DNA of 25,066 nucleotides, from assembly GCF_003334815.1 (NCBI RefSeq), contig NZ_QOWO01000048.1; one strand, written 5' to 3'. This DNA is from Escherichia coli (lineage in GTDB: Bacteria > Pseudomonadota > Gammaproteobacteria > Enterobacterales > Enterobacteriaceae). Shown here piece after piece: positions 520 to 19,543 of the stretch. The position numbers and the translations under genes were made by a program. How positions within the stretch are numbered: the stretch's first letter is position 1; every line of letters starts with the position of its first letter. The notes under the pieces were generated by a model. The model made no database searches, was not told the DNA's origin, and worked only from the letters and a program-made list of their open reading frames with translations.

Positions 520-882
520 TGGTGGAGCTGGCGGGAGTTGAACCCGCGTCCGAAATTCCTACATCCTCGGTACTACATGCTTAGTCAGTCTTTACATTCG
601 CTTGCCAGCTGCGGACGGACACGCCACTAACAAACTAGCCTGATTAAGTTTTAACGCTTCAACCCCAGGCAGGGCTTCCACGCGATCTCTTTTGGGTTTG
701 ACCTCTCTTGATCCCCGTCCTAAGAGCGGAGGCTAGGGAGAGAGGGCTCTAAGCAGGTTATTAAGCTGCTAAAGCGTAGTTTTCGTCGTTTGCGACTATT
801 TTTTGCGGCTTTTTACGAGGCCAACCGCCCCTCGGCATGCACCTTGGGTTTCGCAAATCCCGTCGAATCCAGAATCAGCCCC
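520..882 (-). ncRNA. ssrA: tmRNA (SsrA, 10Sa RNA), 363 nt
   Basis: Reverse complement reads GGGGCTGATTCTGGATTCGACGGG at the 5' end (882 downward) and ...GTTCAACTCCCGCCAGCTCCACCA at the 3' end (to 520), matching E. coli tmRNA. Internal tag reading frame present. Confidence 0.97.
761..793 (-). other. ssrA: tmRNA tag-peptide reading frame encoding ANDENYALAA plus stop
   Basis: Reverse complement of 761-793 is GCAAACGACGAAAACTACGCTTTAGCAGCTTAA = A N D E N Y A L A A stop, the canonical E. coli degradation tag. Confidence 0.9.
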
Positions 883-17534: not shown

Positions 17535-17567
17535 GTGCCGGATGATTCACATCATCCGGCACCTTTT
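17535..17567. terminator. Bidirectional intrinsic terminator shared by convergent tyrA and pheA
   Basis: GTGCCGGATGAT-tcac-ATCATCCGGCAC: perfect 12-bp stem, 4-nt loop, followed by CTTTTC on the + strand; it lies between the tyrA stop (17527) and the pheA stop (17570). Confidence 0.8.
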
Positions 17568-17569
17568 CA

Positions 17570-18730
17570 TCAGGTTGGATCAACAGGCACTACGTTCTCA
17601 CTTGGGTAACAGCCCAATACCTTCATTGAACGGGTGATTTCCCCTAACTCTTTCAATGCTTTTTGCATTTCCGCTGATTCAAGATTGGCCTGAATATCCA
17701 GATAGAACATCTCTTCCCATGGATTACCGTGAATCGGGCGTGATTCCAGACGGGTCATAATCAGATTGTGGTTGCGCAGTACCAGCAACGCTTCAACCAG
17801 CGCACCGGCTTGTTGCCCGGTCGCCATTAACAACGTGGTTTTCGCCGGAACCTGATCAGACACGTTAATGGCTTTACGCGCCAACACCACAAATCGGGTG
17901 AAGTTTTGTCGCTGATTTGCTTCAATACGCTCCAGTACCTGCAAACCGTACAAAGTGCCGCCAGCTTCGCTTCCCAACGCAGCAACATGCGGTGATTTTG
18001 CCTGTGCAACCTTTTCCATTGCCGCAGACGTACTTTCGGTATATTCAATCTTCCAGTGCGGATAACGATTAAGGAATTTGCTGCATTGCTGGAATGGCTG
18101 CGGATGGCTGTAGACCGTATTGATGGTGGATAAATCAGTAGTGCCGGAGACCAACAAACAATGGTCGATAGTTAACGTCATCTCGCCAACAATCGACAAG
18201 CTGGTATGTTGCAGCAGATCGTAAACGTCGTTTATGGCACCGGAGCTGGTATTTTCAATCGGTACGACGGCATAGTCGGCCTGGCCGGTTTCCACCTGAT
18301 TAAAAATATCGGCAAATTTGGCGCAGCCACTTTCAATGAATTGCTCAAAGTGACGGGCAGCATACTGGCGCGCCGCAAGATGGGAATAAGAACCTTTGGG
18401 GCCGAGAAAAGCGATGCGTGCTGAGTGCGGATTAATTTTATTGAGATGTTGTTGGAGCAAAGCCTGCTGAGTTAATACGGAATCTTCAATGATGAGCTGG
18501 AACAGGCGAGTAATGTAATGGGCGTCCAGATGGTGCGCTTTACCGAGCGTAATTAATCTTTCCAGCAAATCGCGTTCACGATCAATATCACGTACCGGGC
18601 GATGCGAGAGCAGTTTGGCTTTTCCCACCTCGACGGCCAGTTCGCGCCGTTCTGCCAGTAACGCTAATAATTTTTCATCCAGCGCGCTGATTTTCTCTCG
18701 CAGCGCCAGTAACGGGTTTTCCGATGTCAT
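17570..18730 (-). CDS. pheA: Bifunctional chorismate mutase / prephenate dehydratase PheA, 386 aa
   Basis: Translation [59 protein letters not shown]... matches PheA. Confidence 0.97.
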
Positions 18731-18752
18731 AGTGTTGCCTTTTTGTTATCAA

Positions 18753-18784
18753 TAAAAAAGGCCCCCCGATTTGGGAGGCCTTAT
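18753..18784 (-). terminator. pheL: pheA attenuator terminator (leader 3:4 hairpin)
   Basis: On the minus strand: AAGGCCTCCC-aaatc-GGGGGGCCTT followed by TTTTTT, lying between the pheL stop and the pheA start. Confidence 0.75.
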
Positions 18785-18828
18785 TGTTCGTCTTCGCATT
18801 CTGTTTCACACGACGAAACGCCTCCCAT

Positions 18829-18876
18829 TCAGGGGAAGGTAAAAAAGAATGCGAAGAAAAACGGTATGTGTTTCAT
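18829..18876 (-). CDS. pheL: pheA leader peptide PheL (15 aa, Phe-rich)
   Basis: Reverse complement reads ATG AAA CAC ATA CCG TTT TTC TTC GCA TTC TTT TTT ACC TTC CCC TGA = [15 protein letters not shown]; seven Phe codons, the classical attenuation leader. Confidence 0.85.
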
Positions 18877-18900
18877 GTTTGTTTCCTTAAGTGACTTTAG

Positions 18901-18931
18901 TACAGTACCCGTACTGTTTTCACGCTGTCAA
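18901..18931 (-). promoter_or_regulatory. pheA: Putative pheL-pheA promoter
   Basis: On the minus strand: -35 TTGACA (revcomp of 18926-18931) and a candidate -10 TACTGTA (revcomp of 18901-18907) at 18-bp spacing; hexamer assignment is uncertain. Confidence 0.45.
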
Positions 18932-18932
18932 C

Positions 18933-18956
18933 AAAAAACGCGCCCGAAGGCGCGTT
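18933..18956 (-). terminator. Intrinsic terminator downstream of raiA
   Basis: On the minus strand: AACGCGCC-ttcg-GGCGCGTT followed by TTTTTT; about 25 bp after the raiA stop. Confidence 0.75.
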
Positions 18957-18979
18957 GGCGATACACTCAATATAAAGGA

Positions 18980-19375
<396 letters not shown>

Positions 19376-19543
19376 TCAAAATGTGTGATGAAAATCTCAT
19401 AATTTTGTCACTTTTTGTCAACGAATCTTTTTTGTGAGAAATCGCAGGAAGAGATGTTTTTTTACTTGAGGAATATCTCAAAGCGAGCCATATTTGATGA
19501 GATCGATAGCGACTAAATCGCTTCAGTTTCACAACTGACAGAA

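Follow-up and report, generated by a model that had tools for sequence, protein, structure and literature searches.

The question raised by this locus was how transcription of pheA is controlled in a place where its promoter lies directly against the end of the preceding gene, raiA. The window, that is, the whole stretch of DNA that was analyzed, comprised 25,066 nucleotides of Escherichia coli (assembly GCF_003334815.1, contig NZ_QOWO01000048.1). The genes of the locus followed one another on the minus strand throughout, in the order raiA, a 103-nt spacer, pheL, the attenuator and pheA (Table 1). The attenuator was the sole promoter-like or terminator-like site between pheL and pheA, and pheA lay on the same strand. 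A query of 501 nt (window 18600-19100) showed 100% identity to E. coli K-12 MG1655 and had matches in all 5426 complete E. coli genomes. The RefSeq annotation of the K-12 stretch listed raiA, a 'Phe leader region', pheL and pheA. In addition, the Rfam family Phe_leader (RF01859, gathering score 55) matched 18877-18752 on the minus strand with 132.3 bits (E = 5.5e-24), covering model positions 1-125 of 125. Because of this covariance-model match and the 100% identity to the annotated K-12 sequence, chance was excluded as an explanation for the leader and attenuator. The interval 18753-18931, to which a sequence-only reading had drawn attention, had its two limits exactly at the -35 hexamer and at the last base of the attenuator U-run. 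We concluded, with a probability of about 0.97, that the element is the ribosome-mediated transcription attenuator of E. coli pheL-pheA, with its promoter set directly against the raiA intrinsic terminator. The comparison with the pheL-pheA leader of E. coli K-12 (RF01859; PMC3082878) gave the same peptide, the same 1:2, 2:3 and 3:4 segments and the same position before pheA. There was no difference, and the element of the window is that element. The leader and attenuator are already known and described, ordinary and unchanged from K-12.

Table 1. Positions of the features discussed in the text, in window coordinates
Feature	Position	Strand	Details and basis
raiA (ribosome-associated translation inhibitor, 113 aa)	18980..19321	-	ORF list; RefSeq annotation of identical K-12 sequence
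raiA intrinsic terminator	18933..18956	-	arms 18956-18949 and 18944-18937; UUCG loop 18948-18945; T6 18938-18933
Candidate attB core inside the terminator, CCTTCGGGCGCGTTTT	18935..18950	-	common to both junctions of P2-family prophage
-35 hexamer TTGACA	18926..18931	-	sequence; conserved across spacers
-10 hexamer TACTGT	18902..18907	-	18-bp spacer; conserved; older literature
pheL, leader peptide gene	18829..18876	-	ATG 18876, TGA 18831-18829; K-12 annotation
Protector structure sequestering segment 2	18786..18862	-	MFE fold, inverted repeat I1, Rfam consensus structure
Antiterminator (2:3)	18772..18827	-	UGGGAGGC 18827-18820 with GCCUCCCA 18779-18772; constrained folds, repeat search
Term-seq 3' end in leader	18812 (K-12 2737663)	-	M63 medium only; PMC7815308 supplementary files 1 and 3
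Attenuator terminator (3:4)	18752..18782	-	stem 18782-18773 with 18767-18758, loop 18772-18768, U-run 18757-18752
pheA (bifunctional chorismate mutase / prephenate dehydratase), the regulated gene	17570..18730	-	ORF list, RefSeq
tmRNA (ssrA)	520-882	-	Rfam, 295.8 bits; expected for K-12 region
RyfD small RNA	22183-22321	+	Rfam, 125.3 bits; expected for K-12 region

The leader peptide was analyzed by translation. The 15-codon leader with seven Phe codons that the sequence-only reading had described was confirmed, with 15 sense codons from the ATG up to the TGA and Phe at codons 6, 7, 8, 10, 11, 12 and 14 (18861-18853, 18849-18841 and 18837-18835). A Shine-Dalgarno sequence, AAGGA, was located at 18888-18884. 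The 3' end of pheL read UUC_CCC_UGA, an ending that gives 15% +1 frameshifting, which is apparently incidental (PMC3082878). When other species were compared, the C-terminal 10 residues of PheL were found again in nearly all of the 120 species retrieved, where the search pattern forced only FFTFP*. The N-terminal four or five residues varied freely. This was in agreement with a variable N-terminus and a kept C-terminal part of PheL as reported by Gurvich et al. (PMC3082878).

Structures of the leader RNA were then considered. The GC-rich hairpin and T-run that had been claimed to follow the leader were present. The terminator scan gave a hairpin of 10 pairs, 7 of them G-C, followed by TTTTTT and placed 21 nt before the pheA ATG; folded alone (18782-18758), it had a free energy of -19.0 kcal/mol. 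The whole leader had an MFE of -52.9 kcal/mol compared to -32.0 ± 3.6 kcal/mol for shuffled sequences (n = 200), which corresponded to z = -5.8, and 0 shuffles equaled it. The unconstrained MFE fold consisted of a long helix, a 1:2 hairpin within it and the 3:4 terminator after it. In the long helix, the Phe codons (18862-18839) were paired with their downstream complement (18809-18786). The 1:2 hairpin inside it was formed by CCUUCC (18838-18833) and GGGAGG (18826-18821). The 5' arm of the terminator, GCCUCCCA, could pair with either segment 4 or segment 2 (UGGGAGGC). All three complementarities were recovered by an independent repeat search, in which the 2:3 pairing (I3) joined 18827-18817 with 18782-18772 over 11 nt at 91%.

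Constrained folding was performed to check whether the antiterminator and terminator structures were mutually exclusive. A fixed ribosome footprint of 15 nt upstream and 13 nt downstream of the A-site was assumed and placed at each codon in turn. The transcript used for the ensemble probabilities was truncated at 18758, the point at which segment 4 has only just appeared; a full-length fold with the 5' end and the U-run gave an AAGGAAA/UUUUUU pairing between the 5' and 3' ends that was judged spurious. The two structures excluded each other, so the leader passed the refuting check that the sequence-only reading had set, and masking of Phe codons moved the leader from ~100% terminator to at least 96% antiterminator. 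The same bases (18779-18773) paired with 18761-18767 in the terminator and with segment 2 in the antiterminator, with complementary ensemble probabilities. In the folding model, the terminator had a probability of ~1.0 when no ribosome was present or when the A-site was at codons 1-4 or 11-16. The antiterminator had a probability of 0.96-1.00 when the A-site was at codons 5-10, a stretch that takes in Phe codons 6, 7, 8 and 10. Stalls at Phe codons 11, 12 and 14 still favored the terminator at equilibrium in this fixed-footprint model, so antitermination from these codons would have to be kinetic. With segment 1 masked, the 2:3 structure was formed (-22.8 kcal/mol) before segment 4 was transcribed. 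In the modeled folds, this is the folding order that a kinetic switch requires. At full length with segment 1 masked, the MFEs with and without the terminator were nearly equal (-37.3 vs -37.5 kcal/mol). This meant that the decision must be kinetic, as in the classical model. When the ribosome was placed at UGA, segment 2 was covered and 3:4 was free.

The pairings were compared across Enterobacterales. With a DNA pattern over the pheL end and segment 2, we found 120 loci from as many species; since this pattern fixed segments 1 and 2, their invariance carries no weight. In 110 distinct leaders, 94.7% of the pairs of the long helix were canonical, with compensatory double changes at 6 of 20 pairs. 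The corresponding values were 96.7% and 2 of 10 pairs for the 3:4 terminator, and 94.5% and 1 of 8 pairs (in a single sequence) for the 2:3 antiterminator. One compensatory example was the change from GCA-UUC / GAA-UGC to GCU-UUC / GAA-AGC. In the terminator, the pair 18780:18760 changed from G-C to A-U in 59 sequences and the pair 18773:18767 from C-G to U-A in 18; with C-to-U at 18773, the antiterminator retains a G-U pair there. As judged from these enterobacterial leaders, the pairing of the long helix and of the terminator is kept through compensatory changes. The upstream neighbor was also shared, with raiA on the same strand in 115 of the 120 species. The four Yersinia loci kept GCGCGTTTTTTATTGACA after raiA, and their distance from the promoter to the pheL ATG was about 70-150 nt vs about 50 elsewhere. 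Two insertion sequences have been described in Yersinia, IS1541 between pheL and pheA and, in Y. pestis, IS100 inside pheA (Gurvich et al., PMC3082878).

Published Term-seq data were used to look for RNA ends in the leader. The 3' end at 18812 was the only leader end, and no 3' end was listed at the attenuator U-run (K-12 about 27377xx) in the tables of PMC7815308. This end followed the 1:2 hairpin by 9 nt and had the sequence context G(-10) Y(-1) G(+1). A pause in the pheL leader is part of the model in the Figure 1 legend of PMC3082878. We infer that the 18812 end probably marks the pause of the attenuator or arose by RNA decay. A different explanation would be that Rho, or translation-coupled polarity, is the main cause of premature termination in the leader, instead of the intrinsic 3:4 terminator. 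The sole leader end lies away from the U-run, as this explanation would have it, and Adams et al. (PMC7815308) listed a Rho-dependent termination region with a peak at K-12 2737662 (window ~18813), with a score of 1.99 and p = 2e-7; however, the score compares 800-nt windows, which here span raiA and pheA, and cannot localize termination to the leader. The twofold change was also small. The 18812 end fits a hairpin-plus-consensus pause, and a canonical intrinsic terminator (10-bp stem, 7 G-C, U6) was present at the classical position and maintained by compensatory changes. The Rho-dependent reading was therefore rejected as very improbable, because the score cannot localize termination and the intrinsic terminator is both present and maintained. 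Nothing contradicted the attenuator model.

The response of pheA to phenylalanine and to charged tRNA-Phe through translation of the leader has been reported for the identical sequence (PMC3082878). In the accepted model, the polymerase pauses after segment 2. Ample phenylalanine lets the ribosome proceed to the stop codon, and termination by 3:4 follows; a shortage of Phe-tRNA holds the ribosome within the Phe run, so that 2:3 can form and transcription of pheA ensues (PMC3082878). Basal pheA expression, which requires the ribosome to be released at UGA, amounts to ~10% of that under starvation (PMC3082878). On this model, the element of the window would act in the following steps. RNA polymerase would initiate at a promoter whose -35 hexamer is perfect and whose -10 hexamer is weak, and the first transcribed base would lie ~20 nt ahead of the pheL ATG. 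It would transcribe the 15-codon leader and probably pause after the 1:2 hairpin until a ribosome begins pheL. When charged tRNA-Phe is plentiful, the ribosome would pass the seven Phe codons and reach UGA, so that segment 2 is covered or paired. With segment 2 unavailable, the G+C-rich 3:4 hairpin would form before the U-run and transcription would end ahead of pheA. When charged tRNA-Phe is scarce, the ribosome would come to a halt on the Phe codons and thereby open the helix that keeps segment 2 sequestered. The freed segment 2 would then pair with the emerging segment 3, the terminator would be blocked and the polymerase would enter pheA.

Enterobacterial amino-acid leaders such as trpL, hisL, leuL, thrL, ilvL and pheM share one logic of attenuation. 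The pheL leader followed it, with a short leader ORF rich in the regulatory codon and alternative 1:2, 2:3 and 3:4 pairings. An intrinsic terminator likewise stood ahead of the first structural gene, and a probable pause would keep ribosome and polymerase in step. However, the seven Phe codons of pheL form two runs of three and a single codon, compared to a total of two Trp codons in trpL. Unlike trpL, it has an extra long helix around the 1:2 hairpin, in which the Phe codons pair with their downstream complement, and a frameshift-prone UUC_CCC_UGA end. The phe operon, unlike the trp operon, is not known to have a repressor.

The promoter was compared with the sigma-70 consensus. The -35 hexamer matched at 6 of 6 positions and the -10 hexamer at 3 of 6, with a spacer of 18 bp. 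A generic sigma-70 scan of 18500-19500 called no promoter. The promoter was missed because its -10 hexamer matches only three of six positions, and the miss was not taken as absence of the promoter because of its conservation and the literature. The identity of the -10 hexamer was likewise assigned because of conservation and older literature. In 97 of 108 raiA-pheL spacers (107 other species and E. coli), an exact TTGACA preceded the pheL ATG by 40-75 nt. The arrangement TTGACA-18 bp-TAnnnT was present in 89 of 103 unique sequences, and the commonest -10 hexamer was TACTTT. The consensus of the -35 region was GCGTTTTTTaTTGACA at a level of at least 80%. The predicted transcription start of pheL was near 18895.

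A perfect 7+7 dyad, ACAGTAC-GG-GTACTGT, overlapped the -10 hexamer of pheL at 18917-18902. This looks like an operator, and it recalls the old idea of a pheR repressor, in which pheA would be under a repressor that binds the -10 dyad and the leader would be minor. The dyad was partly kept in Citrobacter (ACAGTAC-GG-GTACTTT) and Enterobacter. However, it was lost in promoters of the Serratia, Rahnella and Erwinia types. The pheR gene turned out to be tRNA-Phe, and we know of no repressor of pheA. The operator reading was rejected as largely refuted, since the dyad was not conserved outside close relatives, and control of pheA by such a repressor has next to no chance of being correct. Control by the leader attenuator was retained.

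The terminator of raiA was analyzed in the same way. Its hairpin at 18956-18937 was AACGCGCC-TTCG-GGCGCGTT in DNA and AACGCGCC-UUCG-GGCGCGUU in RNA. The stem was a perfect 8-nt inverted repeat with 6 G-C pairs that began 23 nt after the raiA stop codon, and the centroid fold had a free energy of -14.4 kcal/mol. Compared with shuffles of its 61-nt context, the terminator showed no significant excess of stability (z = -0.86). With the shuffle test null, the terminator was called because of its hairpin-plus-T-run geometry, its conservation and a mapped 3' end. The dominant raiA 3' end in Term-seq was at K-12 2737542 in LB at OD 0.4 and 2.0 (PMC7815308 supplementary file 1), with a depth of about 62,000-72,000 reads (Adams et al., PMC7815308). 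Two independent mapping routes placed this position at window 18933, the last T of the run. The same end is shared by RaiZ, a ProQ-dependent small RNA of Salmonella and E. coli that is released by RNase E and consists of the last third of raiA and its 3' UTR (PMC5391140). The hairpin and its U-run correspond to the intrinsic terminator that ends the raiA mRNA and RaiZ (PMC5391140). That paper made no mention of pheL or pheA and was thus silent on the promoter one base past the 3' end of the RNA. RaiZ species of 160 nt and 122 nt have been reported (Smirnov et al. 2017, PMC5391140). The equivalent in the window would be ~18933-19092 on the minus strand, with the start of the 122-nt form near 19054, where the 5' ends are extrapolated from the published lengths. 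No Rfam match to RaiZ was obtained in the window at gathering thresholds.

The junction between the two elements was therefore placed to the base, with the T-run ending at 18933, a G at 18932 and TTGACA at 18931-18926. Transcripts of raiA, and RaiZ with them, end at the last T of the terminator T-run, one base before the -35 hexamer. The sequence-only reading had claimed that the raiA terminator abuts the -35 hexamer and that termination of raiA and initiation of pheL-pheA are only a few base pairs apart. The abutment held, with a gap of 1 bp from the Term-seq 3' end. The second part needed a more exact wording only: the short gap lies between the 3' end and the -35 hexamer, and the predicted start of transcription is ~38 nt downstream of the raiA 3' end. 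The last T-run ended exactly 1 nt before a -35-like hexamer in 89 of the 102 spacers that had such a hexamer. The abutment of terminator and promoter is conserved across Enterobacterales.

This conservation raised the question of whether selection maintains the abutment for a dual use or whether the two genes are simply packed closely. Dual use could take two forms. In the first, the T-tract next to the -35 hexamer would aid the weak pheL promoter, either like an UP element or as a bent A/T tract. In the second, polymerases terminating at the highly active raiA gene would transiently occlude the pheL promoter, and initiation of pheA would be inversely coupled to raiA. Such use would be consistent with the 1-nt spacing, with GCGTTTTTT(A/G)TTGACA being at least 80% conserved across Enterobacteriaceae, Erwiniaceae and Yersinia, and with the strength of the raiA 3' end, at which a polymerase positioned at 18933 would cover the -35 region. 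In the seven Serratia-like loci, the terminator was 15-19 nt further upstream, yet a second T-run without a hairpin (TTTTTA) abutted TTGACA. However, these loci are related, and one insertion event within an ancestral T-run could account for all of them. They may hint that a T-tract beside the -35 hexamer contributes to the promoter, or the second T-run may simply be left over from that event. In addition, the six Rahnella-like loci had only an A/T-rich stretch before TTGACA and no T-run. The T-run lies on the non-template strand at -37 to -43 and mismatches the proximal UP-element consensus, which is A-rich. The role of RaiZ and ProQ alone could explain the strong conservation of the raiA hairpin, and conservation of the terminator is also explainable by a role as a phage attachment site. 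No expression data on the coupling were found. We consider selection for dual use rather unlikely.

The attachment-site role came from genomes in which the raiA-pheL region was split. The split was present in 153 of 5426 complete E. coli genomes (about 3%), and the raiA terminator was taken as an integration site of P2-like prophages in these, with the break examined in two genomes. In these two, the break was at 18956-18950 and a P2-family prophage lay between raiA and pheL with its integrase gene towards pheL. The prophage genes adjoining pheL encoded an integrase, an HTH repressor and Cox. The first of these strains, the one fetched in full, had a prophage of about 29 kb with CCTTCGGGCGCGTTTT (18950-18935) at both junctions, and the raiA terminator was regenerated and the pheL promoter intact. 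The integrase of the raiA-terminator prophage shared only about 57% identity with the integrases of P2 and its relatives. The int/att arm had no near-identical match in the phage collection, and no paper describing this attachment site was found in the literature on raiA/yfiA-pheL as a terminator or prophage integration site. The observation drew on seven loci, three in E. coli, two in Citrobacter and two in Salmonella enterica subsp. arizonae. The junction was the same in the Citrobacter loci, and Citrobacter sp. R56 had a similar prophage at the same spot, with an integrase about 57% identical to P2 Int. Salmonella arizonae had a 1.7-kb islet at the same junction, encoding an EspJ-family T3SS effector. 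The pheL promoter was always left intact at insertions.

Other features of the window were recorded. The convergent 42-nt gap between pheA and tyrA contained a single 12-bp hairpin, GTGCCGGATGAT-TCAC-ATCATCCGGCAC, at 17535-17562 (+/-). It is probably the terminator for both operons, and the terminator scan called its plus-strand (tyrA) side only. The RyfD small RNA has a very abundant Term-seq 3' end (Adams et al., PMC7815308).

For the control of pheA, these results add nothing to knowledge dating from the 1970s-80s. The classical attenuator and its neighbors were located to the base from the raw sequence with tools that concurred, which makes the locus a positive control. A modest residual value lies in the conservation of the junction, the prophage site and the 18812 end. 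The block of hairpin, T-run, one base and TTGACA might be a multi-purpose element that is kept intact for several reasons at once, a proposal that we regard as quite unlikely. The block ends raiA and RaiZ and carries the 3' hairpin bound by ProQ. Its T-tract may contribute to the weak pheL promoter, or terminating polymerases may gate it. Its loop, 3' arm and T-run may also be the core at which P2-family prophages and small islands attach in several genera. The conserved junction, the prophage site and the 18812 end could be of interest for the engineering of phenylalanine overproduction, in which the promoter and attenuator are often replaced, and for the study of 3'-UTR small RNAs and phage attachment sites. 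It would be new if raiA expression (in stationary phase and in the cold) or lysogeny were linked to the initiation of pheA transcription.
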